DNA from: Verrucomicrobiia bacterium
GTDB taxonomy: Bacteria; Verrucomicrobiota; Verrucomicrobiia; Limisphaerales; UBA11358
Direction of reading: 5' to 3'
Length of the DNA stretch: 64,000 nt
Assembly (NCBI GenBank): GCA_036510395.1
Contig: DATCDZ010000152.1
Location: 4,325 to 68,324 of the forward strand
This document shows positions 1 to 19,622 of the stretch, piece by piece. A model generated the notes under the pieces. That model was not told where the DNA came from, made no database searches, and worked only from the letters and a program-made list of their open reading frames with translations. Both the position numbers and the translations under genes were made by a program. Within the stretch, counting starts at the first letter, position 1; each line of letters begins with the position of its first letter.

Positions 1-2648
1 TCGGCAACATTGGTCAGCATGTTGTTAGGCCCAAATTTGAAAGTGCGCCCCTGACGCTCTTGAAGAACAAACGCGCCATTGGTTTTGGCGAGTGTCATTG
101 TGCAATTTGCGGGTGGCGTGAAGGAACCGTCCGGTTGTTTGGTAAATTGAAGTGTATCGTTTCCAAGATTGACCGACACGGCGTTGTTGATGAGTTGGTC
201 AACGCCCCACTTGGCGATGAGCGCCGTGACCATCCAGTTCTTCGCGTCAAGTGTGCCAGTGTTGGTATAGAGATTGAGGGCTGCATAGGTGGCAACGATC
301 ATCGGGGCCATCTGTTGGACGGTTTCGGTGCCCAAACTGCCTTCGGGATCACTGATAGGCAGGGCATTGCAGTAGTAACTGTTCAACCAGCCCGGTCCCA
401 TGCCCGCCGGATTGGAATTAAGGCGGTCGGATGAATAGGATTGCGTCAGATTCAAGCCTCGCGGCTCCGTTCCGCCCAAAGTCAAGGCGGTGGTCGAGAA
501 TTGCAGACTTCCGTCCACCAAGTTCACCGGGTCGGCTCCAAATTGCGTCGGAATCTGCAACGTGTCGGATTGCGGATTGAAAAATGTCGGCTGGTTGTCG
601 CCGGATTCCTGCACGTAGGGCGGATTGATGGTGGCGTTTGGATTCGAGACATAACCGCCGTGGTAGCCGCCTCCGATAATCATGCCCATTGACCTACCAC
701 CGTTCGCGCTGACTCCCAATTCCACGTAGCCATCTCCCGCCCAACTGCTGGCTCCGGCAACATGGTTGGAGCCATTCTGCGGCAACAACAGGATATAACC
801 ATTGCCGATGAGACCGTCCAAGGTGCTCAATGAGGAGCCATAATTAACGAGACTATTGCGGATGTTTGGCCCGCTTGTCCAGTCGGAACTGCTGGCCAGA
901 TAGACGGGCTGCGAGTTTGAGTTGGCGATGTCGAGCATTTTCACCGTGGACGCGGCTACCAGATTGCTGTCCTGCAATTGCTCGATAATTCCATGTTCCA
1001 TCGCGCTGGCGATGTAGCTGTCCACGTCAAAGACCTGATAGCTTCGCTGAAAGTCGGCGGTGTTCGCGCCGCTGTTTGGCAGCGTGCCGGTCAGTTGTAG
1101 ATAAACGTCCACGTAATAACCGCGACCGGCTTCCTCACCCATGCGTCCAAAACGATGTTGGTTTTCCGGCAATAGTCCCCATTCCTGGCAGAGAAGCTCC
1201 TGCGCTAATTCCGTTTGAACCATCCAGCCCAAGCCCATGACATTGAGCGTCTCGGTGGTGACTTGCCGCGATGTATCCGAGTAGCCTTCGGCCCGGTAAG
1301 CGTCCAATTTCCGCTGCCGTTCTTGCAGCCAATACTGGCTCGGCTCGAACCCATACATGATGGCGTAGGATGAATTTGTGCGTTGATAGGCGTTGGTCGA
1401 ACTTAAATCAAATCCCTTCGATGGTCCGCCATCAATCGGAACTTGCAGTGTGCTGTTCCAACCGCCGCCGTAGGGATGCGTGGCGCTGAAGATGACGTTC
1501 ACTGTGTTTGAAGTTCCTGTGGCTGATGTTTGCAAGACTTCTGAATCGTCCTGCCAAAGCTGCGCCACTCCGTTGTTGGAAAATGTGAGCGAAATTCGGT
1601 CTCCTTCCAGTTGCGGCGTGAACCACGTTTGATTGGTTCCGCCGAACGTCATGGAAAATGTTCCCATGAAATTGGTCGGCTCGTTTTGCCAATTCAGTAG
1701 TGGATAAGTGCTGTTGGTATACATGGGAAATTCCAGAGACGTGCTCAATGGCAATCCGCTTGAGGACACAATCTGCTGCCCGCCGATGAGTTGAGCGTCG
1801 GTGGCATTGGGGATGTTATTGGAGATGTAGCCAAGCAGGTTGCTGTTACACGTCTGCAAATCACTTCGCACGGACGTTTCACTTAATCCGCTGACGGCAT
1901 AGCCGCCCGTATCTGTTCCGCCCGCATCGCTCAAGAGCTTGTTGGTATTGAGCATCATGGCCGAAGCCAAATCAACGCCGCTCACCGGCTCGCTCACCTT
2001 GAAGGCCGGGTCGAGGTAATAGTTGGTGCCGCCCACGCTCAAATTCACCCAGATCCTTTGAAAGGCAATGGTGTTCGTGTCGCTCCCAAAAGTATACCAT
2101 GCCGGATTGCCGCGAGTGCCCATGAGGTAACTGAAAAACAAAGTCGTATTGTCCCAATTCGTATTTTGGAGACTCAATCCGAGCCAATGATGCAGGTCTT
2201 GGTGATTGGCCGGGTTGTCGTAGGGCATTTTCAACATCGCAAATTGATAGCTTGGCGAATAACCCGCCGTCCGCAATAGCGCCACCAGCAGGGCGCATTG
2301 GTCGAAATCGTTGCCGCTGCGCTCCAGCAAGGTCAACGCCGCGCCTTTCTTCGAGCCGAAATAATGCACATACCGGATTTGGTCATGCACATAATTGAAG
2401 ATGCGGGTGGGGTCATCGCCCAAGTTGCTGGCCAGCGCCTGAATATCCGGCGTGACCGCTTCCGCCACCGCCGGTCCGGTTTCATTCAAGGGACTTGCCT
2501 GAGCTTGAAAAAGAGGTTGTGCGCCGCCCGTCTCTTGTGAAGGGGCAAGGGCGTTGGTCGTTTCAGCCCAAGCCGGGTCGGTGCCTTGCGCCCGGCCAAT
2601 GCTGGAAATCGTCAGCAATCCAAAAATCAAATATCGCAATGTTTTCAT
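1..2648 (-). CDS. Secreted transglutaminase-like / RHS-family N-terminal (DUF6531-like) protein, partial (C-terminus beyond left edge)
   Basis: Absent from the ORF track because it runs off the left edge. My minus-strand translation from ATG 2648-2646 stays open to nt 3 (both ends re-checked codon by codon). MKTLRYLIFGLLTISSIGRAQG is a signal peptide. LERSGNDFDQCALLVALLRTAGY is a transglutaminase-core-like Cys motif. GADPVNLVDGSLQFSTTALTLGG...LNLTQSYSS resembles the motif preceding RHS/YD repeats. Confidence 0.7.
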   Translation of the reverse strand, partial: MKTLRYLIFGLLTISSIGRAQGTDPAWAETTNALAPSQETGGAQPLFQAQASPLNETGPAVAEAVTPDIQALASNLGDDPTRIFNYVHDQIRYVHYFGSKKGAALTLLERSGNDFDQCALLVALLRTAGYSPSYQFAMLKMPYDNPANHQDLHHWLGLSLQNTNWDNTTLFFSYLMGTRGNPAWYTFGSDTNTIAFQRIWVNLSVGGTNYYLDPAFKVSEPVSGVDLASAMMLNTNKLLSDAGGTDTGGYAVSGLSETSVRSDLQTCNSNLLGYISNNIPNATDAQLIGGQQIVSSSGLPLSTSLEFPMYTNSTYPLLNWQNEPTNFMGTFSMTFGGTNQTWFTPQLEGDRISLTFSNNGVAQLWQDDSEVLQTSATGTSNTVNVIFSATHPYGGGWNSTLQVPIDGGPSKGFDLSSTNAYQRTNSSYAIMYGFEPSQYWLQERQRKLDAYRAEGYSDTSRQVTTETLNVMGLGWMVQTELAQELLCQEWGLLPENQHRFGRMGEEAGRGYYVDVYLQLTGTLPNSGANTADFQRSYQVFDVDSYIASAMEHGIIEQLQDSNLVAASTVKMLDIANSNSQPVYLASSSDWTSGPNIRNSLVNYGSSLSTLDGLIGNGYILLLPQNGSNHVAGASSWAGDGYVELGVSANGGRSMGMIIGGGYHGGYVSNPNATINPPYVQESGDNQPTFFNPQSDTLQIPTQFGADPVNLVDGSLQFSTTALTLGGTEPRGLNLTQSYSSDRLNSNPAGMGPGWLNSYYCNALPISDPEGSLGTETVQQMAPMIVATYAALNLYTNTGTLDAKNWMVTALIAKWGVDQLINNAVSVNLGNDTLQFTKQPDGSFTPPANCTMTLAKTNGAFVLQERQGRTFKFGPNNMLTNVA

Positions 2649-2666
2649 TTGTTAATTCCTTTCCAA

Positions 2667-4136
2667 TTATTGTGAAACCGACAGCACGTTGCCTTCATTG
2701 TCCAAGTTGATGTTTCCATATCTGACGCCGGTGACCGAATCCAGCCAGTCGGCAAAGGTGTAATCGTAAGTTGAGCGCGTGCTTGGCTGCGCGAATTGGT
2801 TGACAATCGGGCTTAATCCAAGCAAAACATCCCAACCGTCGGACAAACCGTCGCCGCTGGTGTTATAGACGTTCGGATCGGATTTTGAAACCAGCAGTTC
2901 GTAAGCATCTGTCAATCCGTCGCCGTCTGAATCTTTAGGCGTCCCTAGAATCAGGAAACACGCCGTGCTTGGCAGGTTTGTCAGGGTATAGATGTTTCCG
3001 TGGTAGCCCTGTCCCATCCACGCCCAAGGCATTCCGGTTGGGCCGAATGACAGGACTGAATTTGCAAAGACATCATACGGCACGCCGTCGGAGCCTCCCT
3101 GAATTGTGAACGTCATCGCCATTCCGCCGTTGGTAACGCTGGTGGTGACATTTGTAATCCAAATATTGGTGCTGGTGATGGCGGAAACCGAGCCGACAAG
3201 CTGCAAGCCGCCCTGTCCGGTGATGGCGTCATAATAGGTCGGCGAACCGGACGGATTTGAAGGTTCGGAAACGATGTTTTCCATCGCCGTGTTCCAAGGA
3301 TTGATCTCGTAATAGGTGTAATACCAGTCAAAAATGGTTTGAACATCGTTGGAACTCAGCGGGTAATTGTAGGTGGCCACGGTGTTGAACATCCCGTGAG
3401 CCTGATTGGTTCCACTGCTCGAACTGCCAATCCAGAACCCGTTGGCCAGAACATCGGGGCCGGGATAAACCGTCACTCCGGGGCCGTTGGTGGCCAGCAC
3501 GCCGTCCAGATACAAGGCCGTATTCGTCGGCGAATATGTCAGCGCAACAAAATGGAAATAGTTGGTCGTCCATGAAATCGGGGCGGAAAGGTAGGTCGTG
3601 ATGCTGTCAGACAAGTCGTTGGTCTGTGCGGCAAAATAAATGTTGTTTCCGCCTTCATCCACAAAAATACTCCACCAGCCATAGCTGTTATCATCCGTGT
3701 AGCTGCCGACTTCAATCAGGCGTCCGTATTGGCCCAGTCCCGTTCCGCCCGCATTCGTGCTCGACCAGGATGATGGCGCGAACCAAAAAGTAACGGTGCC
3801 TGAATCAACCGTCAGGTTTGTGGTTCCGTCATTTTCATAGACGTTATATTGCAACCAAGCCGGGACATTGGTGTCCACGACGAGGGATGAGCCGTTGCCA
3901 AGATGTGAGTAGTTTAGGTTGGTGAACGAAACCGGCGCGTAGCCGGCGTCGCTTGTCCAGTTGGTACTGTCATAAAATGACCACGAATCCAGCGGCGCGT
4001 TTGTCGGCCCATATCCACCGCCGCCGGATGGCGGCACTTGTGCATGAGCCGTCCCTGCCAGAGAATAGAGCAGCATTGCAGGGATGATCAGCCGGATTAA
4101 CTGATAGTTCAATTTAATGTGATTAACAGTTTTCAT
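2667..4136 (-). CDS. Secreted LamG/ConA-like lectin-domain protein with C-terminal Asp-rich (TSP3-like) repeats
   Basis: 489-aa ORF with an N-terminal hydrophobic signal (LIIPAMLLYSLAGTAHA). LamG-like pattern: GTVTFWFAPSSW...YFHFVALTYSPTNTALYLDGVL...GFWIGS. C-terminal DSDGDGLTDAYE and SGDGLSDGWD repeats. It stops 18 nt upstream of the start of feature 1 on the same strand. Confidence 0.75.
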   Translation of the reverse strand: MKTVNHIKLNYQLIRLIIPAMLLYSLAGTAHAQVPPSGGGGYGPTNAPLDSWSFYDSTNWTSDAGYAPVSFTNLNYSHLGNGSSLVVDTNVPAWLQYNVYENDGTTNLTVDSGTVTFWFAPSSWSSTNAGGTGLGQYGRLIEVGSYTDDNSYGWWSIFVDEGGNNIYFAAQTNDLSDSITTYLSAPISWTTNYFHFVALTYSPTNTALYLDGVLATNGPGVTVYPGPDVLANGFWIGSSSSGTNQAHGMFNTVATYNYPLSSNDVQTIFDWYYTYYEINPWNTAMENIVSEPSNPSGSPTYYDAITGQGGLQLVGSVSAITSTNIWITNVTTSVTNGGMAMTFTIQGGSDGVPYDVFANSVLSFGPTGMPWAWMGQGYHGNIYTLTNLPSTACFLILGTPKDSDGDGLTDAYELLVSKSDPNVYNTSGDGLSDGWDVLLGLSPIVNQFAQPSTRSTYDYTFADWLDSVTGVRYGNINLDNEGNVLSVSQ

Positions 4137-4302
4137 AGATTACCTTTTGGAAGTTGGCTCCCCTTTTGCACCCGCAGCGTGGCTGGATTCGCCAGATTCA
4201 TCTGACCATAAAATCTTGCAACATGAGTCCCCGTTGAGTCCAGAGGTTTTCTGTGACTTTGAGGAAACATTTACCCGACAATTATTATAGCAATGTATCC
4301 CG

Positions 4303-4581
4303 TTGTCAATCATCTTTCCCCATGAGTTCAAAATTCGCGTCTGGCACGCTTCGGGGGTGGCGAAAAAAACACTCCAGTTCAACATCCGCATGTCCGAGGA
4401 ACAGCGCACGGAATTGGAAGCCATGTGCCGCCGCCGCCGCCGTCCGTTGAGCTTCCAAGTGGAACATCTGATTGCCTTGGCTAAACTGCTCATTGAATTT
4501 TGCGATGGCAACGATGATCTGGAAATTGCGCGTGAACGGCTGGCCGCTGCCAAAAAGCGTTTGCCAAAAAAGGGCAGTTGA
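4303..4581 (+). CDS. Ribbon-helix-helix (CopG/MobC-like) DNA-binding protein; probable true start GTG 4357
   Basis: KKTLQFNIRMSEEQRTELEAMCRRRRRPLSFQVEHLIALA fits the strand-helix-helix pattern of RHH proteins. The competing antisense ORF 4140-4658 has no recognisable features. Confidence 0.45.
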   Translation: MSIIFPHEFKIRVWHASGVAKKTLQFNIRMSEEQRTELEAMCRRRRRPLSFQVEHLIALAKLLIEFCDGNDDLEIARERLAAAKKRLPKKGS

Positions 4582-4654
4582 ATCGCAACTGAAACATTTC
4601 GCCCACACCTTTCTAAAAAGTGCGCTTCCCGATTAAATTGTTGGAATAGGTTGG

Positions 4655-5077
4655 TCATGCCGTTGCGGTTTCTTCGACGAGGGAAAGAATGCGGGAAAGG
4701 AAATCCTGCGTGTCAAATGGCTTCTCAATGAAATCCGCTGCACCAAGGTCAAGGCCACGCTGCTGATTTTCAATACTGGCATTTCCGGCCACAAATACAA
4801 TTGGTGTTTCCGCGAGGCGGGGGATTTGCCTCAAACGCGTGAACAGGTCGAACCCACTGCTGCCGGGCATTTCAAGGTCAAGGGTGATTAAATCGAACAC
4901 TTGCGTTTGAGCCAGACGCAAAGCTTTTTCGGCATCCAAAGCTCCTTGTGTTTCGCAACCGGCTCGTGTCAGCAGAAATCGCATCATCGTCACCACGGCC
5001 ATTTGGTCGTCCACCACCAGAATTTTCGCTTTAGCTGTCATAAACCCGTGTCGTGAAGATTTGTTATCAGTTTTCAA
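4655..5077 (-). CDS. Stand-alone CheY-like receiver-domain response regulator
   Basis: KILVVDD...FDLITLDLEMPGSSG...PIVFVAG...ADFIEKPF. The probable start is ATG at 5041 (MTAKAKILVVDD). Confidence 0.85.
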   Translation of the reverse strand: MKTDNKSSRHGFMTAKAKILVVDDQMAVVTMMRFLLTRAGCETQGALDAEKALRLAQTQVFDLITLDLEMPGSSGFDLFTRLRQIPRLAETPIVFVAGNASIENQQRGLDLGAADFIEKPFDTQDFLSRILSLVEETATA

Positions 5078-5143
5078 ATCGAAGTCAACACTGTTCTCTT
5101 AAAAGAACAGAAGTTTCCGGCACTGACCTAGCCTTTAATCTGG

Positions 5144-5449
5144 ATGACTGCTCCGCTCAATCTCGTCGGCCCCCAGGTGCGGCGATTTCGCATCAAGAAA
5201 CATTGCACGCAGGAAGCACTGGCGGCCAAGCTGCAAGTCGAGGGCTGGGATGTCAGCCGCGAATCGCTGGCCAAGCTGGAATCGCAATTCCGCCGGGTGC
5301 CGGATTGCGAATTGCTGTTTCTGGCCAAAGTTCTCGGTGTCGAGGTCATGGATTTATTTCCGGCCAAACCGGATTTGAAAAAACTCGACCCGGCGTTGCG
5401 CCTGAAAGTGTCCACCAAATTTCCCCGCCGCAAGTCCCGCCGTTCGTAG
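5144..5449 (+). CDS. XRE-family helix-turn-helix transcriptional regulator
   Basis: VGPQVRRFRIKKHCTQEALAAKLQVEGWDVSRESLAKLESQFRRVPDCELLFLAKVLGVEVMDLF is a typical HTH_3/Cro-C1 pattern. Confidence 0.8.
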   Translation: MTAPLNLVGPQVRRFRIKKHCTQEALAAKLQVEGWDVSRESLAKLESQFRRVPDCELLFLAKVLGVEVMDLFPAKPDLKKLDPALRLKVSTKFPRRKSRRS

Positions 5450-5519
5450 GCGATGATTTTCTGGGTTCCGATTTCTTCCTGTTTCCCCCCCGCGCTCATT
5501 TGGCTGGCGCGGCTGCGCT

Positions 5520-5543
5520 CCTGAAAACAAGAGTGTTTTCAGG
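5520..5543. terminator. Hairpin between convergent genes (possible bidirectional terminator)
   Basis: Perfect 9-bp stem CCTGAAAAC / GTTTTCAGG with a 6-nt loop, lying between the 5449 stop (+) and the 5580 stop (-). No U-tract. Confidence 0.35.
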
Positions 5544-5579
5544 AACCTTGGATTCGCTTGGGGAAAGGGATGCGGCAAA

Positions 5580-6548
5580 CTATTTTGCCGGGTTGTTGGT
5601 GGCTTGCGCCTGATTTTCACCGTCCGGAAGCAAGTGCCGGATTTGTTTTTGGGAGACGCTGCTGCGAAAGAAAATACAGCCATTATTTTGTCCGTTGACC
5701 TGACGCATATCAGCGGCGTAAGCGCCTTCAATCACCAGCACAAATCCCGGTGGACTGGCAAAGCTGTCATTTTGCGTCGGCAACACTTTGATGGGAATTT
5801 GGGCAACGGCCAGCATGTGAAACGCCACCTGATTGAATTGCATGACCTGCGCCATGTCATCAATTTGGATGGCCATTTTGCGGTCGTAGCGGGCGGCAAG
5901 CTCCAAACTAATCAGGCAGGCAATGAGAAGAGCCGCCCCCATGCTCCAAAAAAAACTGGTGGTCCAAGCGGTTTTCCAAATTCGTTTCGTCCATTCGGAC
6001 TTGGCTTCATCGGCGGCATCCTGAATTTTCTCCAGCGTTGGCATGACCTTCCAAGCCAGATCGTTTGTATGCTGCACGAACGGCGCGATGATTTTCTGGT
6101 TGATGCCGGATTGAATCGAGTTTTGAATCCCCTGCACGATGGCCTTGGTGTCCACCTGTGCGCCAAGATTTTTCATCGTCAATTCAATGGCCGCAATGGT
6201 TTCATCGCATTTTTCTTGGGTTGCGCGGCAAAGCTCGTCGGTCTTTTCGGCGTGATCCGTGATGTTGGCATCGCGGGTTTCAATCGTTTTGGCGAGCAAA
6301 CTAACTTCGTCGCGCAGTTCCTGAAAGGTCGCCAGCGAATCGGCGTTGGCCGAAATCATCCGGGCGGGGATGCGTTCGGCGTAATGGGCATACACGTCCA
6401 GCACGAGAAAAAGCTGGCTAAAAAACTGCGTGCTGTCGCCGTCGGCGAAGCGATAATAAACCGCCCGCGCCAGCTCCCGCTTTTCAGCGGGATAGGCGGC
6501 AAGCATTTCTTCAAACAATTCGGATTCGGGCATAACATCTCCTTTCAA
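5580..6548 (-). CDS. Hypothetical coiled-coil protein with one central TM segment (third gene of the ParA-like operon)
   Basis: 322-aa ORF whose start overlaps the upstream stop by 4 nt. The N-terminal half is helical and acidic; the hydrophobic segment is TTSFFWSMGAALLIACLISL. I recognise no family. Confidence 0.6.
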   Translation of the reverse strand: MKGDVMPESELFEEMLAAYPAEKRELARAVYYRFADGDSTQFFSQLFLVLDVYAHYAERIPARMISANADSLATFQELRDEVSLLAKTIETRDANITDHAEKTDELCRATQEKCDETIAAIELTMKNLGAQVDTKAIVQGIQNSIQSGINQKIIAPFVQHTNDLAWKVMPTLEKIQDAADEAKSEWTKRIWKTAWTTSFFWSMGAALLIACLISLELAARYDRKMAIQIDDMAQVMQFNQVAFHMLAVAQIPIKVLPTQNDSFASPPGFVLVIEGAYAADMRQVNGQNNGCIFFRSSVSQKQIRHLLPDGENQAQATNNPAK

Positions 6549-7372
6549 TTCGTGAGATTCACTTTCGCGCCGCGCTTGGCTGAAAATGGTTCGCCGATGG
6601 GCGGCGCGGTTTTAGGTTTGATGGTGGCCGCTTCAACGGCGGGCAACAGCTTGGCGGCAATCTGGTCGTATTGATTGAACATGGTGGCGAGCCAGTCCTG
6701 CAACACGCCCCGCGCCATGATGTCGAGGCCGAGCGAGTCGTTGCCGATGGCTTCATTGAACGGGATGCCGCGCTGATGGTCGGCCTCTAACTTCGCCAGC
6801 CGAAGCTTCACAAATTCCGACAGCACCGGCACGGTGATGGTCACTGCACCGCAGTCGAGCAATTCCTTTTCCATCGGGCTGTTGTCAAACATTCTGGTTT
6901 TGGATGCCCGCGCCGGATTACGGACAATGACATAATCCACCTGCCTGCCGCAGAACTGGCAGACGGCGGCAAGATTGGTCATCACGTCCAAGTCATCGAA
7001 TGGAAACACCATGAGCGTGATGCCGATGTTCTGCGTGGCGGCGATGTCAAAGAAATGCGTGGCCGATAACGCCTTCATCAGTTGCGCGTCCAGATGCGCC
7101 CGTGGGTCAATCAGGGTGACGGGTTGGGCGGTCGTCTTTCGCAGAATCAAAATGAGTTCGTCCAAGTCTTCGGCCTGGCCGTTTAGCGGTATGAGTTTGA
7201 CCTGGCCGGGGAATAATCGGGACAGAGTGCGGTTGTCGCCGTCCAGATCAAATCCCTGCCACGGGAGGCCACGTTGGTTAAGCCAGCACGCGCGGGCGGT
7301 GGCTTCGATGCTTTTGCCCATGTTACCTTTGGCCTGCATGGGCAGAATCAGGCGATGTTTTATAGTTTTCAT
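6545..7372 (-). CDS. ParA/MinD-superfamily P-loop ATPase (plasmid TraL/MobD-like)
   Basis: Deviant Walker A near the N-terminus (PMQAKGNMGKS), a size of 275 aa, and 4-nt overlaps with both neighbouring genes. Confidence 0.65.
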   Translation of the reverse strand: MKTIKHRLILPMQAKGNMGKSIEATARACWLNQRGLPWQGFDLDGDNRTLSRLFPGQVKLIPLNGQAEDLDELILILRKTTAQPVTLIDPRAHLDAQLMKALSATHFFDIAATQNIGITLMVFPFDDLDVMTNLAAVCQFCGRQVDYVIVRNPARASKTRMFDNSPMEKELLDCGAVTITVPVLSEFVKLRLAKLEADHQRGIPFNEAIGNDSLGLDIMARGVLQDWLATMFNQYDQIAAKLLPAVEAATIKPKTAPPIGEPFSAKRGAKVNLTN

Positions 7373-7716
7373 ATTGGGAGGTTATTGAACTGATATGGAT
7401 TATCTGTTTTGGTTGTTGTTGTTGCTGCCTGCGCCGGCGTCGGTGCCGATGCAGATGGATTCACCGTGTCCGGCTGTGCCGTCACCGCTTCGTTTTCCCA
7501 ATGAGACTGCGCCTGACGTTTCAGGTAGCGCCGGTAGAACTGGTGCAATCCCTGAAACGTGATGACGCAATCCTTTTCGGTGCGCAGCCGGGCGGCGATT
7601 TCCTGCCACGTTCGGCGCTGCTGGCGTTGCTCGCGGATAAACTCCGCGAACGCTTCGAGGCGGCTGCGATAAGCGCGTCCGCCGCCACGCCGTTTAATTT
7701 TGATTTCCGAATCCAT
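7369..7716 (-). CDS. Small basic putative DNA-binding protein (first gene of the operon divergent from the relaxase operon)
   Basis: 115 aa. The Arg-rich N-terminus RRGGGRAYRSRLEAFAEFIREQRQQRRTWQEIAARL is HTH-like. It sits next to the GTTGAA iteron array. Confidence 0.5.
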   Translation of the reverse strand: MDSEIKIKRRGGGRAYRSRLEAFAEFIREQRQQRRTWQEIAARLRTEKDCVITFQGLHQFYRRYLKRQAQSHWENEAVTAQPDTVNPSASAPTPAQAATTTTKTDNPYQFNNLPI

Positions 7717-7750
7717 TCGCCACCAGTTTAGGCCAGCCGATGGCGGTTGC

Positions 7751-7795
7751 GTTAGCGAGTAGTGGGCGGGTTAAGCAGGAAAGTGGGCGAGTTAA
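7751..7795 (-). promoter_or_regulatory. Element-specific conserved box (full copy 7751-7773 plus half copy 7782-7795) upstream of the 7716 operon
   Basis: Read in the gene direction: TTAACTCGCCCACT-n7-TTAACCCGCCCACTACTCGCTAAC, ending 34 nt before the ATG. The 23-nt core is identical to 14060-14082 and near-identical to 9631-9649. Confidence 0.55.
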
Positions 7796-7815
7796 ACGCG
7801 ATAGCGTTTTTACCT

Positions 7816-7916
7816 GTTGAAAGGCGTTGAATCGCCGGGTTGAAACCGGTTGAACGGTGTTGAACCGTGACGTTGAAAGGTGTTGAATCGCGTTGAATTC
7901 ATCAACGCTTTTCAAC
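7816..7916. repeat. Iteron array: 8 direct GTTGAA repeats plus inverted copies
   Basis: GTTGAA starts at 7816, 7826, 7839, 7849, 7859, 7872, 7882 and 7892 (spacing 10/13/10/10/13/10/10 nt). TTCAAC follows at 7911, with a GTTGAT-type inverted variant at 7902-7907. The sub-repeat GTTGAAAGG(C/T)GTTGAATCGC occurs twice. Confidence 0.85.
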
Positions 7917-8230
7917 GCAATTTTTCATGGCGTCCGGCGCGCAACCGAGAACCTACGATTTTTCGTAGGGGTGGGGCGTCCACCTTTTAAGCTGACGAAT
8001 AGGAAGCTAAACAATTGATTAAATACCGGGCGATTAGCGTTGAATCGGAATGTTGCAAATGAATTACCACCATGATGAATTTCAGTCGGATGCAACTGAA
8101 ACGGATGATTTAGGAATCACGTTTGGGAAAGATTGAACCGGCATACGTTTCAAAACCGATGATAATTTCTTAACGGGAATTGGTGATGAAAATTCAACCC
8201 GTATATCAGCATTGATTACCGTCAGCACTG

Positions 8231-8301
8231 AATGGCCGTTTCAGAAACCGGAGCGAAACGAAACGGATGAGCAGAGGAGCGCGGTTTTTGAAACGGCCAT
8301 T
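8231..8301. repeat. 20-bp inverted repeat (19/20 match) with a 31-nt spacer
   Basis: AATGGCCGTTTCAGAAACCG (8231-8250) pairs with CGGTTTTTGAAACGGCCATT (8282-8301). Confidence 0.8.
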
Positions 8302-8332
8302 GAGTGCGTCACCGGATAGGTTTGAATCACGC

Positions 8333-8408
8333 GGCGTTTAGTCTGTCCGGTTTCCGAGAGCCGCAGGAAAGCCGAACAGTCTAAACGCCGTTGCCGCATA
8401 TTGTGGAT
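8333..8408 (+). other. Candidate oriT core: imperfect hairpin followed by a nic-like GCATATTGTGGAT
   Basis: GGCGTTTAGTCTGT (8333-8346) pairs with ACAGTCTAAACGCC (8376-8389) at 13/14 positions. GCATATTGTGGAT lies 6 nt downstream (8396-8408). As I recall, the R388/TrwC nic region is GGTGCGTATTGTCT/AT just 3' of a hairpin. The resemblance is weak. Confidence 0.3.
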
Positions 8409-8464
8409 TGTGTTTCAGAGCGATTCTGAATTCAAAAATTCAGGCAGGCTCGCCGATGGGTTAC

Positions 8465-8943
8465 GGGAAAGGATGGGGCAAGCGGTGACTGAATTCTGCC
8501 GGAAATCCAAGCCAAAAGCCTTTTTCATTTTGTTCCAAAATGGAACGAAGCTGCCCAGGCAATCTGGAAAAATACTGCCAATGGTGACATTCGTTTTTGC
8601 AAAGTTTGCAGGAGCGGAGCCGGTTGTTCCGCGAGAATGTCAGCCGAAAAAATAAACCAACGTGACGCATGAAAAATAAATCCGAAAAATGGCGGCAGAC
8701 TGGCCGATGGTTTTTGGGGAAAGGACGGAGCCATGAACGGCCAAATTCCGCCGGGAATGAATGCCGCAAGTGCTTTTCACTTTGTTTCATTTTGAAACAA
8801 TTACCACTGCCTGTTCTGCCAGAATGGTTCCATGAATTTATATTTCGACCAAGTTGCGGGAAAGGATTGGGTCAGGCGGTCGTTGAATTCCGCCGTGAAT
8901 CCAGACCGGAAAAAAAATTCATTTTGTTCATGGGGTGAACAAA
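8465..8943 (+). repeat. Three dispersed ~85-nt U-repeats (8465-8546, 8717-8800, 8858-8943), each ending in a hairpin
   Basis: Shared skeleton: GGGAAAGGA..GG...AATTC.GCCG.GAAT...TTTCA.TTTGTT-hairpin. The terminal hairpins are GTTCC-aaaat-GGAAC, (TT)GTTTC-atttt-GAAAC(AA) and (TTT)GTTCA-tgggg-TGAAC(AAA). Confidence 0.8.
8608..8710 (+). repeat. V-repeat copy 1 (paralogue of the leader and first codons of the 9183 gene)
   Basis: GCAGGAGCGGAGCCGGTTGTTCCGCGAGAATGTCAGCCGAAAAAATAAACC..GTGACGCATGAAAAATAAA...CTGGCCGATGG aligns with 9117-9222. It contains the hairpin GCGGA-n9-TCCGC followed by a GAGAAT -10-like hexamer. Confidence 0.75.
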
Positions 8944-9116
8944 GCGGCTTCGCCAATCCGATAAGATGCCGCCAAATAACAGCCATGAAAAATGACAGCC
9001 AAAAAAATCATTGTGGCAAAAGTGGTGGCTTCATCCTGTGTGTTTTCCGCACTGGATCGCCCGCAAACTCTGCCAAAGTGGGAGCCGTTGGGAAAATTCG
9101 AGTTGTGCAATGGGCT

Positions 9117-9222
9117 GCACAAGCGGAGCCGGAATTTCCGCTAGAATGTCTGCCGGAAACATAAATAAACCGTAGGTGACGTATGAATAATGAAGCGCCA
9201 AACAACCTCGCTGGCCGGATGG
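9117..9222 (+). repeat. V-repeat copy 2 = probable promoter/leader and 5' end of the 9183 gene
   Basis: GCACAAGCGGAGCCGGAATTTCCGCTAGAATGTCTGCCGGAAACATAAATAAACC..GTGACGTATGAATAATGAA...CTGGCCGGATGG. It has the same GCGGA-n9-TCCGC hairpin and a TAGAAT hexamer. Confidence 0.75.
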
Positions 9223-9605
9223 AAAAAGAGATTCGCGTCAAGCCTGGAAAAAATAAAGAAGCAGCAGAACAGCGAGCCAGTGCCGTTTATGTGCTCAACA
9301 ACGAACTCAAGGCGATCTTGAATCTGAACCGGCCACCGGCGCGTTTGAACACGGCGCAGACCGCCGCCTACCTCGGCTTCAAACCGCATGACATCCCGGT
9401 GCTGGCCGCGCGGGGATTCCTCAAGCCGTTGGGCGACCCGATGCCCAACAGCGATAAATACTATGCGCGGGCAAGGGTGCTGGAACGGTTGGACGATGAG
9501 GAATGGCTGTCACTGGCAACAGCGGCCTTGAGCCAGCATTGGCAGAAGAAAAACGCCAGCAAAACCAAAAAGCGGAATGGTCATGCCCGGCCAGTTAAAA
9601 AATGA
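9183..9605 (+). CDS. Helix-turn-helix (excisionase/MerR-like) protein, putative relaxosome accessory factor
   Basis: LNTAQTAAYLGFKPHDIPVLAARGFLKPLG resembles excisionase-family HTH_17 proteins. It lies immediately upstream of the relaxase on the same strand and has a basic C-terminal tail. Confidence 0.6.
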   Translation: MNNEAPNNLAGRMEKEIRVKPGKNKEAAEQRASAVYVLNNELKAILNLNRPPARLNTAQTAAYLGFKPHDIPVLAARGFLKPLGDPMPNSDKYYARARVLERLDDEEWLSLATAALSQHWQKKNASKTKKRNGHARPVKK

Positions 9606-9630
9606 ACTATTCGGTTTAACCACGACCAAC

Positions 9631-9649
9631 TCGCCCACTACCCGCTAAC
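9631..9649 (+). promoter_or_regulatory. Element-specific conserved box upstream of the relaxase gene
   Basis: TCGCCCACTACCCGCTAAC ends 33 nt before ATG 9683. It has the same orientation relative to its gene as the copies at 7751 and 14060. A degenerate upstream half-site is TTAACCACGACC. Confidence 0.55.
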
Positions 9650-9682
9650 GCGGGAAATGCGTTTTGATTTACGCTGGCGGCC

Positions 9683-12649
9683 ATGCTTGCACCGAAAGCC
9701 CAATACAACCCGGTTGACGCCAAAAAGTATTTCAAGGAACACCTGGCGGTCGGCGATTATTATGCCGAGGGGCAGACCGTTCCCGGCCAATGGATCGGCA
9801 AGGACGCGGAAGATTTGGGCTTGTCCGGCGTAACCACCACCGATGAGTTTGTCCGGCTCTGCGACAATCTCCATCCGCAAACCGGCGAACGGCTGACACT
9901 CCGGCAAAAAACCACGCGGATTGAAAAGGGGATTGATGGCGAAGAACGGCAAGCCGCCAATCGCCGGGTTTTTTACGATTTCACTTTTTCCCCGCCCAAA
10001 TCGGTTTCCATTGCCGCGCTGGTCGGCAACGACGCTCGGATTGTCGAGGCGCATGAGCAGGCCGTGACGGTGGCCATGCACCAGTTGCAAACCTTCGCGG
10101 CAACGCGCGTGCGGAAAAACGATGAATGCACGGACCGGCATACAGGCAACCTCGTGGCCGCGATGTTCCGGCATGACACCTCGCGCGCTTTAGACCCGCA
10201 TCTGCATACGCATTGCATCGTGTTCAACGCCACGTTTGACGCGGTGGAAAAGCAATGGAAGGCATTGCAGAACCATGAAATGTTCGCCGCGCAAAAATTT
10301 GTCGAGAATGTTTATTACCATGAACTCACGCGCGAAATGGTGAAGTGCGGCTATCAGATTGAAAACAAACCGCGCGGCGATTTTGAAATCAAGGGCGTCG
10401 CGTCGGAACTGATTGACAGGTTTTCCAAGCGGCACCGGGAGATTGACCGGAAAACCAGGGAACTGCTGGCGCGTGAACCGGAAAAGGCGGGCGACAACAT
10501 TGCGGCGATTCGGGAGAACATCGCGCACAAGGACCGGCCACGGAAAATCCGGGACATCGGTTTGGAAAAATTGCAAACGCTGTGGGACGGCCAGATGACA
10601 GCGGGCGAAAGGGCTTCGCTGGATGGGCTGACGGTGAAGCCGTCCGTCGCGCCCGTTTCCAGCGAGAAGATTTGCGAGCAGGCCGTGACGTGGGCGGAGC
10701 AACACCTGTTTGAACGTCATTCCATCGTCCATGAGCATGAACTGTGGCGGCACGCGCTGGAACGCGTCAGAGGGCAGGACGTTTTACTGGCGGACATTCA
10801 GGCCGTCACTCAAAAACGCGGCTATCTGCACTTCGACGAGCATCCCGGCAAGGTTTCCACGCGGGAGCATCTTGAACGTGAAATGGAAATTGTCCAGAAG
10901 GCCAAAGAGGGGATTGGCGAATGTCATCCGCTGGTCTGGCAACCGAAGCCCTTCAATCCCATGTTGGATGGGGAACAGCGCGAAGCCCTCGCCGCGCTGG
11001 TTTCCAATCGTAACCGGGTCGCGGTCTTTCGTGGCGGTGCCGGCACGGGCAAAAGTTTCGTGCTGCGCGAGCTGGTCGGGCAAATCCGCGACGGCGGGCG
11101 CGGCGTAGTCGTCCTCGCGCCGCAACGCCAGCAAGTGCTGGACATGGAACGGGACGGCTTTCCGTCGCCGCTGACGGTTGCCAGTTTTCTGCAAAAGAAA
11201 GAACTCCAAGAGGGAACGGTGGTGATCGTGGACGAGGCCGGGCAGATTGGGGGCAAGCCGATGTTGGAACTGCTCCGGCTGGTTTCTGAACGCAATGCGC
11301 GGCTGATTTTGTCGGGGGACACGCGCCAGCATGGGGCGGTTGAGGCGGGGGACGCGCTGCGGGCGATTGAAAAACATTCCGGCGTCTCGCCAGTGGAATT
11401 GACCAACATCCGCCGCCAGAATCCGGCGCTGGCGAAGTCAATCGAGGAGCGCAAGCATATCAAGGAATACCGTCAGGCCGTCGAGGCAGCGCGTGACGGC
11501 AAGTTCGCGGAATCGTTTGCACGGCTGGACAAATTGAAAGCGATTGAGTCCTGCACGCTGGCCGACAAGCATGAAAAGCTGACGGCGCGTTATCTGCAAC
11601 TGGTGAAAGATCATCAGTCCACCGTGGTCGTCTCGCAAAGCTGGAATGAGATTCACCAGGTCAACGACGCGATTCGTGTTGCGCTTAAAAATGAAAAGCT
11701 CGTCGGCGAAGCGGAAACCACGGTCACGGCATTTCAGCCGGTGGATTTGACGGAAGCGCAAAAGCGCGATGTCCGTTCTTATGATGCCAATACGGTGCTG
11801 GTGTTCAATCGTGACGTGCGCGGGTTCAAGGCCGGTGAATCGGCGCGGTTGAAATTGATTACCGACACGCATTTGCTGGTGGAAACGGACACGCGCATCG
11901 TCCCCATTTCCTTCAAGCAGTTGGACAAGCTGACGGCCTGCCAGCGCAAGGAATTGGCTTTGGCCGCTGGCGACAAGCTGCAACTCAAGGCGAATGGCCG
12001 CAGCGTGGAAAACCGCAAGCTGGTCAACGGCGAACTGGTCACGGTCAAGGCGGTCCAGCCTGACGGCCGCATTGCACTGGCGGATGGCAGGGTCTTGGAT
12101 AAAAACTTCCGGCAGTTCGTCCGGGGCTACGCCATCACGTCCTATGCGTCACAAGGCAAGTCGGTGGAACACGTTTTGTTTTCGGATTCGGCGGCGAAGG
12201 CCGCGACGAACCAGCAGCAATGGTATGTCACGATTTCGCGCGGCAAAAAGGGGATTCATATTTTCACCACGGACAAGGAGCAGTTGCGGGAGAACATCAC
12301 GCGCAGCGGGGATCGCCCATCGGTGGTGGATGTGCTGATGGCACATTACCGGAAACATGATTCGTTTTTTCGCATGATTGAACGGAGTTGGGGAACGCGG
12401 CTGGCGCTCACCATGACCAACAGCAAACGCGCCAGAGAATTTCGCGCGCTGCGCCAGCGGCAAAACCAAAGTCAGGCGCAAGCGCAAACTGAAACGATCA
12501 AGCAAACGGTTGAATCCAATGAGCCGCGCCAGCAACCCGTCCAGCCACCGGCGCAAAGCCACATGGCTGAAACCACGGAGCCGAAAATCAAGCCGCACCT
12601 GATTTTCCCGGAAGTCCCGAAAAAACAGTCGCGCGGTTACAGGCCGTGA
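9683..12649 (+). CDS. MobF-family relaxase (TrwC/TraI-like) fused to a RecD-like helicase
   Basis: N-terminus: DAKKYFKEHLAVGDYYAEG...GQWIGKDAEDLGLSG. Histidine triad: HDTSRALDPHLHTHCIVFNATF. Walker A: FRGGAGTGKS, with LILSGDTRQHGAVEAG. C-terminal helicase motif: ITSYASQGKSVEHVL...YVTISRGKKGIHIFT. Confidence 0.9.
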   Translation: MLAPKAQYNPVDAKKYFKEHLAVGDYYAEGQTVPGQWIGKDAEDLGLSGVTTTDEFVRLCDNLHPQTGERLTLRQKTTRIEKGIDGEERQAANRRVFYDFTFSPPKSVSIAALVGNDARIVEAHEQAVTVAMHQLQTFAATRVRKNDECTDRHTGNLVAAMFRHDTSRALDPHLHTHCIVFNATFDAVEKQWKALQNHEMFAAQKFVENVYYHELTREMVKCGYQIENKPRGDFEIKGVASELIDRFSKRHREIDRKTRELLAREPEKAGDNIAAIRENIAHKDRPRKIRDIGLEKLQTLWDGQMTAGERASLDGLTVKPSVAPVSSEKICEQAVTWAEQHLFERHSIVHEHELWRHALERVRGQDVLLADIQAVTQKRGYLHFDEHPGKVSTREHLEREMEIVQKAKEGIGECHPLVWQPKPFNPMLDGEQREALAALVSNRNRVAVFRGGAGTGKSFVLRELVGQIRDGGRGVVVLAPQRQQVLDMERDGFPSPLTVASFLQKKELQEGTVVIVDEAGQIGGKPMLELLRLVSERNARLILSGDTRQHGAVEAGDALRAIEKHSGVSPVELTNIRRQNPALAKSIEERKHIKEYRQAVEAARDGKFAESFARLDKLKAIESCTLADKHEKLTARYLQLVKDHQSTVVVSQSWNEIHQVNDAIRVALKNEKLVGEAETTVTAFQPVDLTEAQKRDVRSYDANTVLVFNRDVRGFKAGESARLKLITDTHLLVETDTRIVPISFKQLDKLTACQRKELALAAGDKLQLKANGRSVENRKLVNGELVTVKAVQPDGRIALADGRVLDKNFRQFVRGYAITSYASQGKSVEHVLFSDSAAKAATNQQQWYVTISRGKKGIHIFTTDKEQLRENITRSGDRPSVVDVLMAHYRKHDSFFRMIERSWGTRLALTMTNSKRAREFRALRQRQNQSQAQAQTETIKQTVESNEPRQQPVQPPAQSHMAETTEPKIKPHLIFPEVPKKQSRGYRP

Positions 12650-12656
12650 ACGGCGG

Positions 12657-12950
12657 TCAGTCCAGCGGGTAATCGTCGTGGTCATAATAGTCCGGCGGTT
12701 CCCACAACGGCGGGGCAAACGGTGGTGGTGGTGGCGTTCCCGGCAATTGAATGAAAATCGCTGGCCGGACGTGGGACATGGGTTTTCCTCTCTTTGGTCG
12801 CAATGCGCCGCATAATACCCACACCAAAAGAGCCAGCAAAAGATAGATGGCTCCGATGAGAAAATAGAGCGCATGGTCGTGAACGAATCCGTCAAGGTGT
12901 TTCAATCCCGACGTTTCCAGTTCGAGTGCCTTAATTTGCCAAGGTTGCAT
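12657..12950 (-). CDS. Small membrane protein with a Pro-rich acidic tail (hypothetical)
   Basis: Preferred start is ATG 12950, preceded by GGAGGA (12955-12960) directly after the integrase stop. TM segment: YFLIGAIYLLLALLVWVLCGAL. Tail: PPPPPFAPPLWEPPDYYDHDDYPLD. The track start at 13007 would overlap the integrase. Confidence 0.5.
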   Translation of the reverse strand: MQPWQIKALELETSGLKHLDGFVHDHALYFLIGAIYLLLALLVWVLCGALRPKRGKPMSHVRPAIFIQLPGTPPPPPFAPPLWEPPDYYDHDDYPLD

Positions 12951-12960
12951 GGTGTCCTCC

Positions 12961-14034
12961 TTATGCGGCAACGGCTTTCGCCGCTGGTTCGGGGTTGTGG
13001 CTTCCAATAATCACCTTCTGTTGCCGCTCGTATTCGCTCAAGGAAGGCATTTCCACCGGCGCTTTGCGGGAATAGGCCCGCGTCATGGCCTTGCTGTTGT
13101 GGCCAAGATTCACCTGGGCATACCGTTCGGGATAGCCCGCCGTTTTTGCCCGTTCTGCCCACGCGTAACGGTAGCTGTGCAGCGAGACGCCTTTGATGCC
13201 AAGTCCATCGCAGCGTTGTTTGAACTCCGTGGCGCGGTCACCAGAGCGCACGGTTCGCATATATGGAAACAAGGGGCCGCTCCCCGGCAAGTCGCGCAGG
13301 ATTTCCGCCATGTCTTCATCAAAACGCATGATGGCAATCGAGCCGGTCTTCTGGCGCGCATAGCTGATGACGTGGTGTTCCCAATCAACGTCCTCGGCGT
13401 TCAAGCCCGCCAGATCGGATTGCGATGCGCCCAAGTGCCACGCCAGTTTGTAGAACGCCTTGCGTTCGGGATTGTTCTCGCGGGCGACGATGGCCAGATG
13501 TTCCGCCAGCGTGATGCCGCGCTTCTCTTTGAACTCGACGGCGGGCCACTGGCGTTTCGGCACCAGCGGCCACGGCAGCCAGTTCATGTCCACGCAGAAA
13601 TTGTGCAACCGCCGGAGATAAACATTCGTCGAGACGGTTCCCATTTGCAGGACTTTCAGAATCGCTTCGCCCTTGCTTTCGATGATGACCTGCGGCAAGA
13701 GCATCGCCAGTGCCTTGTCCTTCGCGGCGGTTTTCCAGCGATGTTGATTCGCTCCCTGCTTGGTGCCAATCAACGACTCAATGGCGTTCTGCCATGTCCG
13801 CGTGGTCAAGCCCGTGTCCGAACCGGCCAGATACGCCTTGGCGATTTGCAGGTTAAGAACGGGCTGGCGTTCGGAGTTGTTCTTGGCCGCGACAACCTGC
13901 TTGGCATCGTCCTCATTGGCCGTGCCGAGACTGGTGCGCTTGCCGGTGCTGGTGTCCACGCAATAAAACTTATTGCCCCGGATACCACGACGAATTAAGC
14001 GATAACGTGTTTTCATAGTATTACGCAATCGCAA
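12961..14034 (-). CDS. int: Tyrosine recombinase / phage-type integrase
   Basis: C-terminal catalytic region: GVSLHSYRYAWAERA...NLGHNSKAMTRAYSR. The likely true start is ATG 14016 (MKTRYRLIRRG), since 14034 is a TTG. It lies 155 nt from the tRNA-Cys 3' end. Confidence 0.9.
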   Translation of the reverse strand: MRLRNTMKTRYRLIRRGIRGNKFYCVDTSTGKRTSLGTANEDDAKQVVAAKNNSERQPVLNLQIAKAYLAGSDTGLTTRTWQNAIESLIGTKQGANQHRWKTAAKDKALAMLLPQVIIESKGEAILKVLQMGTVSTNVYLRRLHNFCVDMNWLPWPLVPKRQWPAVEFKEKRGITLAEHLAIVARENNPERKAFYKLAWHLGASQSDLAGLNAEDVDWEHHVISYARQKTGSIAIMRFDEDMAEILRDLPGSGPLFPYMRTVRSGDRATEFKQRCDGLGIKGVSLHSYRYAWAERAKTAGYPERYAQVNLGHNSKAMTRAYSRKAPVEMPSLSEYERQQKVIIGSHNPEPAAKAVAA

Positions 14035-14059
14035 GAATAACTGAAGCCGGTTCCGCAGA

Positions 14060-14082
14060 GTTAGCGAGTAGTGGGCGGGTTA
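14060..14082 (-). promoter_or_regulatory. Element-specific conserved box upstream of the integrase
   Basis: GTTAGCGAGTAGTGGGCGGGTTA is identical over 23 nt to 7751-7773. In the gene direction it is TAACCCGCCCACTACTCGCTAAC, ending 43 nt before ATG 14016. Confidence 0.55.
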
Positions 14083-14188
14083 GTGCCGGTTACGCTAGAT
14101 TCTAACGGAGTAGATAAACTGGTGTCCGTTCTGGTGTCCTTTGACACCCTCGCACCTCTTAAACCATTGCTGCAATAACAGTTAGGAA

Positions 14189-14263
14189 TGGAGGCGGGAG
14201 TCGGAATCGAACCGACGAATGCAGCTTTTGCAGAGCCGTGCCTTACCACTTGGCTACCCCGCC
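14189..14263 (-). tRNA. tRNA-Cys (anticodon GCA), CCA encoded
   Basis: The reverse complement GGCGGGGTAGCCAAGTGGTAAGGCACGGCTCTGCAAAAGCTGCATTCGTCGGTTCGATTCCGACTCCCGCCTCCA folds by hand into a cloverleaf. It has a 7-bp acceptor stem, anticodon loop CUGCAAA and T-arm GTCGG-TTCGATT-CCGAC. Confidence 0.93.
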
Positions 14264-19327: not shown

Positions 19328-19581
19328 TGCGTGGCTTTCCATTTCACATCCGGCCTGCCCAAATCTTTCAAAATGGAGCCGCGCGTCGCGCCATAAAGCG
19401 CGCCGGTTTGATTTTTTTTGGAAAGGATGTATTCCGATTTGCCGCGACGAATCGTGACTTTCTCGCCACGGTCGGCGGCGGAAAAAACCCGTTCTGGCGA
19501 ACGATAAAGAGCTGTCGCGGTTGCAGTCATCAGATAAACAGTATGATTGAACTGTTGCCGTGTCAATTGCAAGTCCGGCAA
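19324..19581 (-). CDS. Phd/YefM-like antitoxin
   Basis: TATALYRSPERVFSAADRGEKVTIRRGKSEYILS. The probable start is the internal ATG 19530 (MTATATAL). Confidence 0.6.
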   Translation of the reverse strand: MPDLQLTRQQFNHTVYLMTATATALYRSPERVFSAADRGEKVTIRRGKSEYILSKKNQTGALYGATRGSILKDLGRPDVKWKATQ

Positions 19582-19622
19582 AACGAAACATCCACGAACA
19601 GATCGGCGGCGATTTTTTCAAA

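Follow-up and report, generated by a model that had tools for sequence, protein, structure and literature searches.

A conserved box of 22 base pairs (bp) was found upstream of three operons of an integrative element, in 64,000 nucleotides (nt) of DNA from a Verrucomicrobiia bacterium (Limisphaerales, UBA11358; contig DATCDZ010000152.1 of assembly GCA_036510395.1). This whole stretch is called the window below. The three operons start with the genes of a tyrosine integrase, a MobF relaxase and p115, a helix-turn-helix (HTH) protein of 115 amino acids heading a ParA-like operon. The box very probably represents a promoter-linked array of protein-binding sites. In the reading preferred here, to which we attribute roughly even odds (probability about 0.5), a winged-helix protein, most likely of the family of p140, whose gene ends just ahead of the relaxase box, would sit on this repeat array and activate three promoters devoid of a -35 element.

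Box copies in the window

When CGCCCACTACYCGCTAAC was searched with up to three mismatches, exactly three matches were encountered in the 64 kb, at 7751-7768 (-), 9632-9649 (+) and 14060-14077 (-). Shuffled sequences gave a chance expectation of 0.06, and none of 100 shuffles reached three matches. The three sites front the integrase, relaxase and p115 genes, and the motif occurs nowhere else in the window. An earlier note on this DNA had reported an identical 23-mer at 7751-7773 and 14060-14082, together with a near-identical copy at the relaxase. This was confirmed here, as were its distances from box to start codon, namely 33 nt for the relaxase (ATG 9683), 34 nt for p115 (ATG 7716) and 43 nt for the integrase (ATG 14016). 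The upstream half-sites that it described are present at all three places, as TTAACTCGCCCACT (7782-7795, -), TAACCGGCAC (14083-14092, -) and TTAACCACGACC (9616-9627, +). A 13-mer, TAACYCGCCCACT, searched with up to two mismatches, matched the half-site places and a single chance-level site in the other ~50 kb. Each box is followed by a -10-type hexamer (Table 1), and the spacers between the two (GCGGGAAATGCGTTTTGATT, GCAACCGCCATCGGCTGGCC and TCTGCGGAACCGGCTTCAGT) differ among the three copies, so that the boxes are not part of a duplicated segment.

Conservation of the box in related elements

From GTDB genomes, 80 loci were taken whose relaxase homologues showed 56-95 % identity; these homologues were labelled Verrucomicrobiae or Limisphaerales by their sources. 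In many of these loci, the box fronted relaxase, integrase and p115 at the corresponding position. A metagenome scan with AACYCGCCCRCTRCYCGCTAAC retrieved at least 120 exact matches, and every one listed was located in an element. Viral contigs displayed no exact match. Classification of the gene behind the box covered 178 copies with enough flanking sequence, from 200 loci and the window. Integrase genes were the most frequent (92), followed by relaxase genes (44), p115 (32) and one p140 paralogue; nine downstream genes were left unclassified, at least three of which were recognisable as integrase genes.

Integrases behind identical boxes were 37-98 % identical to that of the window, and the box changed by only zero to two bases across elements of this integrase range and with relaxases 56-95 % identical. 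No host or mating-pore gene was found behind the box among the metagenome matches (at least 120). With up to four mismatches, no box preceded a gene of either kind in ~0.7 Mb of flanking host DNA, and none was present in the ~50 kb of host DNA of the window. The motif was therefore not scattered over the host DNA examined irrespective of gene starts, and relatives carried it before the same three gene classes. This comparison lends strong support to the proposal of a common promoter or operator element by which integration and transfer genes are co-regulated, through the conserved gene association and the fixed 20-nt distance to the hexamer.

Some relaxase subfamilies (L041-L074 and similar) lacked the box. 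Their short region between divergent p115-like and relaxase genes contained, ~130 nt upstream of the relaxase, the palindrome TTGCGC-N9-GCGCAA together with a CAAGGAGAAnAGCGTCC motif, and TAnnnT was again situated 6 nt before the ATG. The p115 gene faces this palindrome, and in these subfamilies the same place in the promoter seems to be taken by another regulator.

Promoter architecture

Spacings and -35 elements were counted on 167 distinct box copies. A [T/C]AnnnT hexamer was situated exactly 20 nt downstream of the box in 153 of them, every other offset reaching at most 18, and the 20 intervening bases showed no conservation. TTGnnn 16-18 nt upstream of the hexamer was displayed by none of the copies (0/167), whereas TTGCnn or TTGACn, N16-18 and TAnnnT were found in 40 out of 82 upstream regions of host tRNA genes from the same loci; the tRNA-Cys promoter of the window reads TTGATT-N17-TAAACT. 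A simple sigma-70 scan recognised no consensus promoter at any of the three box sites. Relative to the predicted transcript start, the box spans about -54 to -33 and the hexamer -12 to -7. A housekeeping-type -10 element without -35 is a design typical of activator-dependent promoters, from which we infer activator dependence, and the box probably mediates activation.

The gap from hexamer to start codon was 5-8 nt in 38 out of 41 distinct relaxase copies and 7-9 nt in 20 out of 28 p115 copies, and amounted to 13-23 nt in most integrase copies. Since relaxase and p115 start 5-8 nt past the hexamer and transcription would begin ~7 nt downstream of it, leaderless mRNAs are predicted for both. 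The repeat unit AACTCGC is one base off the extended -35 of host tRNA genes (AACTTGC) and lies 22 nt, not 17 nt, from the hexamer. A role of the box as RNA element was considered and discarded: Rfam matched the tRNA alone, and the box is upstream of the predicted transcript start.

Repeat structure and link to the attachment site

The box is composed of two 11-bp units, AACTCGCCCAC and TACTCGCTAAC. As deduced from 155 distinct promoter sequences, it forms the promoter-proximal pair of a tandem array in which direct repeats of 10-11 bp (wACTCGC..) occur two to five times, with up to three further units 5' of the box (for example TACTCGCCAG-AACTAGCCAG-AACTAGCTGA or TACTCCGTAAG-AACTCAGCG-TAACCGGGCTT). 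Head-to-tail units of one helical turn each point to a protein oligomerising along one face of the DNA. The core of the interpretation given in the earlier note held, and its element could be refined to the upstream half of a putative -35-less promoter made of tandem repeats, the integrase copy of which is also located in an arm of the attachment (att) site.

The distance from the box to the 3' end of the tRNA gene was 95-97, 104-108, 116-120 or 129 nt in 50 out of 51 integrase cases, i.e. it grew in steps of ~11 bp, independently of the tRNA used (Cys, Thr, Asn, Phe or Leu). The 12-nt repeats located between box and core (Table 1) varied among element groups (ACGGACACCA, TGTCAGTGAAA, TTCAGTG, GTGCCAGCA and AGCTCCAGCAAA). 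They reappeared in the far arm where the far att end was covered, and an inverted partial box unit was found beside them (L157, L050, L013, a remnant in L187, and L201, which is a second assembly of the window's element). Over the 60 N-terminal residues, integrases were 75 % identical within a 12-nt repeat type and 43 % between types, while the box was identical across groups. As the 12-nt repeats track the integrase N-terminal domain, they are likely arm-type sites. As these repeats follow the integrase, and the iterons of the partition operon follow p115/ParA, while the box is invariant, the box is expected to be read by another protein. This reader would act at both att arms as well as at the promoters.

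Use of the box as origin of transfer (oriT) or nic region of the MobF relaxase was rejected, since there are three copies per element and since the box also occurs, at the integrase, in L157, a 5.4-kb element without any relaxase-sized open reading frame (ORF).

Candidate readers of the box

No Pfam match was obtained for p140. Its AlphaFold2 model displayed a confident core (predicted local distance difference test, pLDDT, 81-91) with strand, helix, helix and wing, followed by a long C-terminal helix. Foldseek aligned this core to BldC (6ama) with a probability of 1.0, a template modelling (TM) score of 0.79 and a root mean square deviation of 1.9 Å; the other matches included Xis of mycobacteriophage Pukovnik, RdfS (8dgl) and P2 Cox (4lhf). 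Association with the box was examined by clustering the ORFs of 77 long loci (47 box-positive and 30 box-negative). The best-associated real protein families were the integrase (34/47 vs 3/30) and the p140 family (34/47 vs 5/30; Fisher p = 2e-6). No clear correlation appeared between variants of the box and variants of the p140 recognition helix. A p140 paralogue of 114 amino acids adjoins the far att arm (L201, 19093-19437), outside the window; a position beside an att arm is the classical place for a directionality factor. A protein of 68 amino acids near the same arm looked HTH_17-like by eye and had no Pfam match. That a p140-family protein reads the box is held tentatively, its chances being slightly short of even.

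Several observations weigh against p140-driven activation. The Foldseek E-values of p140 were weak (0.06-0.5) and good alignment was limited to the 52-residue core, and its association with the box is partly phylogenetic. In 13 out of 47 box-positive loci (e.g. L020, L033 and L035), no p140-family gene was found within 10 kb of the relaxase, which is weak evidence because elements can extend past the fetched flanks, as that of the window does. The winged-helix region of p140 is only ~57 % identical between element groups with identical box. More generally, the box is far better conserved than any element protein, which is at least equally compatible with a reader encoded by the host or shared in trans; such conservation is unexpected for a private reader and keeps the other kind in play. 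Finally, promoters, transcript start sites and the sign of regulation were all deduced from sequence.

The ligands suggested in the earlier note were XRE, ribbon-helix-helix (RHH) or HTH proteins of the element. The XRE protein showed no association with the box (13/47 vs 7/30 loci), no RHH protein was present among the ORFs scanned, and the HTH protein p115 follows its neighbouring iterons instead of the box. p115 was discarded as best candidate for the reader: it was found in 20 out of 47 box-positive and 18 out of 30 box-negative loci, and the adjoining iterons change with it, which the box does not. Because the TTCAAC/GTTGAA iterons upstream of the p115 promoter vary by element while the box is constant, they are the likely target of p115. 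Other excisionase-like small ORFs, encountered in L036, were not common to the remaining p140-less loci and were abandoned as well. The sole response regulator of the element (4655-5077) has a receiver domain only.

Proposed mechanism and alternative explanations

According to the preferred reading, the array would stand in for the -35 element at the promoters of the integrase, the MobF relaxase and the p115/ParA-like partition operon. A small winged-helix protein would bind the units head to tail, one monomer per helical turn, and, with the box ending at -33, the bound protein would recruit host RNA polymerase. Genes for excision, DNA processing and maintenance would thereby be switched on together. 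Because the integrase array lies in an att arm, adjoining the putative arm-type sites and with helical phasing to the core, its reader would also serve as architectural or directionality factor, a role that RdfS plays in ICEMlSymR7A.

Activation could also be exerted by a conserved host regulator, or by one that a co-resident or helper element provides in trans, which we consider somewhat unlikely. An OmpR/PhoB winged-helix response regulator, acting on 10-11-bp direct repeats at -35-less promoters, would exemplify such a reader, and many elements would then answer one signal, like AcaCD or SetCD boxes on mobilisable islands. This would explain why the box remained nearly constant while integrases, relaxases, arm sites and iterons diverged, and why no single element protein is found in every box-positive locus. 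Several genomes carry multiple elements, tandem arrays occur, a helper is needed anyway given the lack of mating-pore genes in the scanned ORFs, and SGI1/AcaCD provides a precedent (PMC8373056). A regulon of this kind is nevertheless at odds with the lack of boxes before host or mating-pore genes in the metagenome matches, flanks and window DNA covered above, and the element's one response regulator is receiver-only. It is unlikely that the box acts as a common address for the whole family, whereby one very conserved reader, host-encoded or shared in trans among the many co-resident and tandem elements of Verrucomicrobiae, would replace sigma region 4 at -35-less, leaderless promoters and shape the intasome. 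Improbable, too, is a repressor operator at which an element protein would occlude RNA polymerase in the integrated state until induction. Integrative elements often have shared operators before int and tra genes, Cox/Apl-type winged-helix proteins repress through tandem repeats, RdfS represses PrdfS (PMC11963761), and the element includes an XRE-type HTH gene (5144-5449), which, however, is the one lacking association with the box. For repression, the invariant distance to the hexamer would be needless; promoters without -35 would be weak unaided, while host promoters possess one; and the array is upstream of -33, off both the -10 hexamer and the start site.

The high frequency of integrase genes behind the box (92/178) and their rank as best-associated cluster could suggest that boxes are arm-type sites of the integrase, used in the intasome and for regulating its own gene and the other two operons, the more so as the box is in an att arm, in helical phase with the core, with a partial inverted copy in the other arm. 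We nevertheless judge this very improbable. The separate 12-nt pair, present in both arms and co-varying with the integrase N-terminal domain, is a better candidate; the box is identical across integrase groups and missing from L055 in spite of a similar integrase N-terminus; and the relaxase and p115 copies are in promoter register 4-6 kb from att. Only a slim chance, smaller again, is left to an alternative sigma factor reading the CGCTAAC end of the box as an unusual -35, without activator. The strictly fixed hexamer spacing and the single base between AACTCGC and the extended -35 of host tRNA genes would suit it, and AAC-containing -35 elements are typical of extracytoplasmic function (ECF) sigma factors, which was counted in its favour. 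The downstream TAnnnT hexamer is, however, of housekeeping type and not an ECF-type -10, and a 20-nt gap is too long for a -35/-10 pair of the sigma-70 family. Moreover, the tandem upstream units and the promoter-less inverted copy of the far arm would be left unexplained, and no gene for a sigma factor turned up in the scan of element ORFs.

Comparison with known systems

The logic of the box most probably resembles that of the RdfS, Cox/Apl, BldC and AcaCD/SetCD systems. RdfS of ICEMlSymR7A (Mesorhizobium) activates intS and binds an attP region that overlaps PintS; PrdfS is bound as well, and rdfS is located upstream of oriT and the relaxase gene (PMC11963761). A small winged-helix gene just upstream of the relaxase gene is thus common to both systems, and the RdfS binding region lies in an att arm at the integrase promoter, where the integrase array is also placed. 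RdfS binds further element promoters and oligomerises along DNA, and its structure (8dgl) is matched by the p140 core. RdfS sites have no consensus motif, in contrast to the almost invariant 22-bp sequence found here, whose array keeps a constant 20 nt to the hexamer in three promoters without -35, that of the partition operon included. Host phylum and protein family also differ, p140 being without Pfam match and its binding predicted only.

BldC of Streptomyces binds direct repeats head to tail (PMC5859096). P2 Cox, 186 Apl, P4 Vis and BldC are all winged-helix proteins that act, like the reader proposed here, on variable numbers of direct repeats spaced by a helical turn; Cox and Apl function in excision and promoter control, and BldC is a cooperative head-to-tail transcription factor. 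None of these proteins is known to have a relaxase or partition operon under its control. Cox and Apl, which are also treated in the discussion of PMC11963761, act mostly as repressors of early promoters, and their boxes are shorter and less conserved.

AcaCD, SetCD and SgaCD boxes are found on IncC plasmids, SXT elements and mobilisable islands such as SGI1 (PMC8373056). As here, a single box stands before several operons of excision and transfer, and many elements, related or not, have it in common. FlhDC-type heteromers are the readers there, however, the box sequence and its repeat structure are unrelated, and a Pfam scan of element ORFs gave no FlhC/FlhD match. Pho boxes and OmpR sites are tandem 10-11-bp direct repeats, variable in unit number, that replace or abut the -35 of activator-dependent promoters. 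In contrast, the element encodes no DNA-binding response regulator, no host regulon with the box was seen, and the array ends at -33 instead of fully overlapping the -35. The box would be distinguished from known systems by its nearly invariant sequence, fixed -10 phasing, predicted leaderless targets and phylum. The searched literature contained nothing on the regulation of Verrucomicrobia mobile elements, and a search for the box motif only returned unrelated primer sequences.

Element, neighbouring genes and other repeats

The features of the window are collected in Table 1. The integrase gene abuts the tRNA-Cys gene, and a host gene comes next. L201 is 100 % identical to positions 1-14136 of the window and reveals that the element runs on beyond the left end of the latter. 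Its far att arm contains GGACACC three times, as well as an imperfect copy, in direct orientation, of the tRNA 3' end (19579-19599). The window contains the right-hand 14.2 kb of the element, which, from the far arm of L201 and the continuation past the window, totals ~19.7 kb. No direct att repeat was found within the window, the far end being located through L201 alone. As a relaxase gene is present and no mating-pore genes were detected among the element ORFs scanned, the element is considered an integrative mobilisable one.

Table 1. Genes, box arrays, hexamers and att-linked sites of the element in the window
Feature	Position	Strand	Remarks
p115/ParA-like operon	5580..7716	-	p115 HTH 7369-7716; ParA-like ATPase 6545-7372; p322 5580-6548
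p115 -10-type hexamer TAAACT	7725..7730	-	20 nt after box, 8 nt before ATG
p115/ParA-like operon promoter box	7751..7773	-	
Second full distal unit TTAACTCGCCCACT	7782..7795	-	21 nt (two helical turns) 5' of its box counterpart; kept in p115-type promoters
p140 gene, winged-helix, Xis/BldC/RdfS-like core	9183..9605	+	ends 22 nt before relaxase box
Degenerate upstream unit TTAACCACGACC, relaxase promoter	9616..9627	+	consensus of relatives cAATTCGg..TAACC
Relaxase-promoter box AACTCGCCCACTACCCGCTAAC	9628..9649	+	
Relaxase -10-type hexamer TACGCT	9670..9675	+	20 nt after box, 7 nt before ATG
MobF/TrwC relaxase-helicase gene, 988 amino acids	9683..12649	+	Pfam TrwC E = 2.8e-85, AAA_30
Tyrosine integrase gene, 351 amino acids	12961..14016	-	Pfam Phage_integrase E = 1e-9
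Integrase -10-type hexamer TATTCT	14034..14039	-	20 nt after box, 17 nt before ATG
Integrase-promoter box TAACCCGCCCACTACTCGCTAAC, two promoter-proximal units	14060..14082	-	homologous position kept before 92 integrase genes
Three more degenerate 10-11-bp units TACTCCGTTAG, AATCTAGCG, TAACCGGCAC	14083..14113	-	read directly; five-unit layout also in relatives
Putative integrase arm-type sites, two tandem 12-nt repeats ACGGACACCA, AAGGACACCA	14120..14141	-	between box and att core
tRNA-Cys gene	14189..14263	-	3' end = att core, 107 nt from integrase box

Directly upstream of the p115/ParA box promoter (7816-7915), GTTGAA iterons occur in eight direct copies, after which come two inverted ones. 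Relatives retained four to eight GTTGAA iterons (0.2 expected), and some displayed GTCAAC or TTGCCGC iterons instead. The iterons resemble a centromere or operator for the partition operon.

Within a non-coding stretch of 1.4 kb, three degenerate repeats of 110-130 nt (8436-8995) share GGGAAAGGA, GAATTCyGCCGG.AAT and TTCAyTTTGTT; no Rfam match was obtained for them. Two strong inverted repeats, at 8225-8307 (26-nt arms, 92 % complementary) and 8332-8390 (22-nt arms, 86 % complementary), represent oriT candidates for the MobF relaxase. A further repeat of 55 nt (8607-8661 and 9116-9170, 80 % identity) carries an inverted repeat, GCGGAGCCGG..TTCCGC, directly adjoining (G/T)AGAAT. Both copies stop shortly ahead of an ATG, at 8669 in one case and at 9183, that of p140, in the other, and the repeat may represent a second type of shared promoter or operator, controlling p140.

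Between the partition operon and the cargo (4655-5449), a gene for the receiver-only response regulator (4655-5077, -) and an XRE/HTH_3 gene (5144-5449, +) were found; this pair was present in box-positive and box-negative relatives alike. The cargo (window 1-4136 and L201 10001-17371) encodes a Laminin_G_3 protein and an RHS/YD-repeat protein of 1960 amino acids with transglutaminase-like core. The latter crosses the left end of the window, and small ORFs after it may include immunity genes.

Related elements were also encountered in tandem at one tRNA gene (L201 19579-19800; L187 2640-4060). Past the far att repeat of L201, a second element begins; its arm repeats are different (GTGCCAGC), and its box, AACTCCCACCTGCTCCCTACC-N20-TAACCT, is decayed. 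In L020 (11326-11400 and 12728-12802), and also in L171, an inverted pair of tRNA-Cys genes flanks the integrase gene, which suggests an inversion or nested integration event.

Implications

Should a host-encoded or trans-shared protein read the box, dozens of diverged elements would be induced, excised and mobilised in unison, and this would explain both why a 22-bp box is far better conserved than any of the element proteins and why its unit mimics the extended -35 of the host. More directly, the activating array of the preferred reading predicts one switch coupling integrase, relaxase and partition expression, with transcription control tied to att architecture in an RdfS-like manner, though with an explicit motif. 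The cis-element is sharply defined and easily testable, with 22 bp, a fixed spacing of 20 nt and three target operons. It is common to a very large family of integrative elements of peat and soil Verrucomicrobiae, and metagenomes can be searched with it for such elements.

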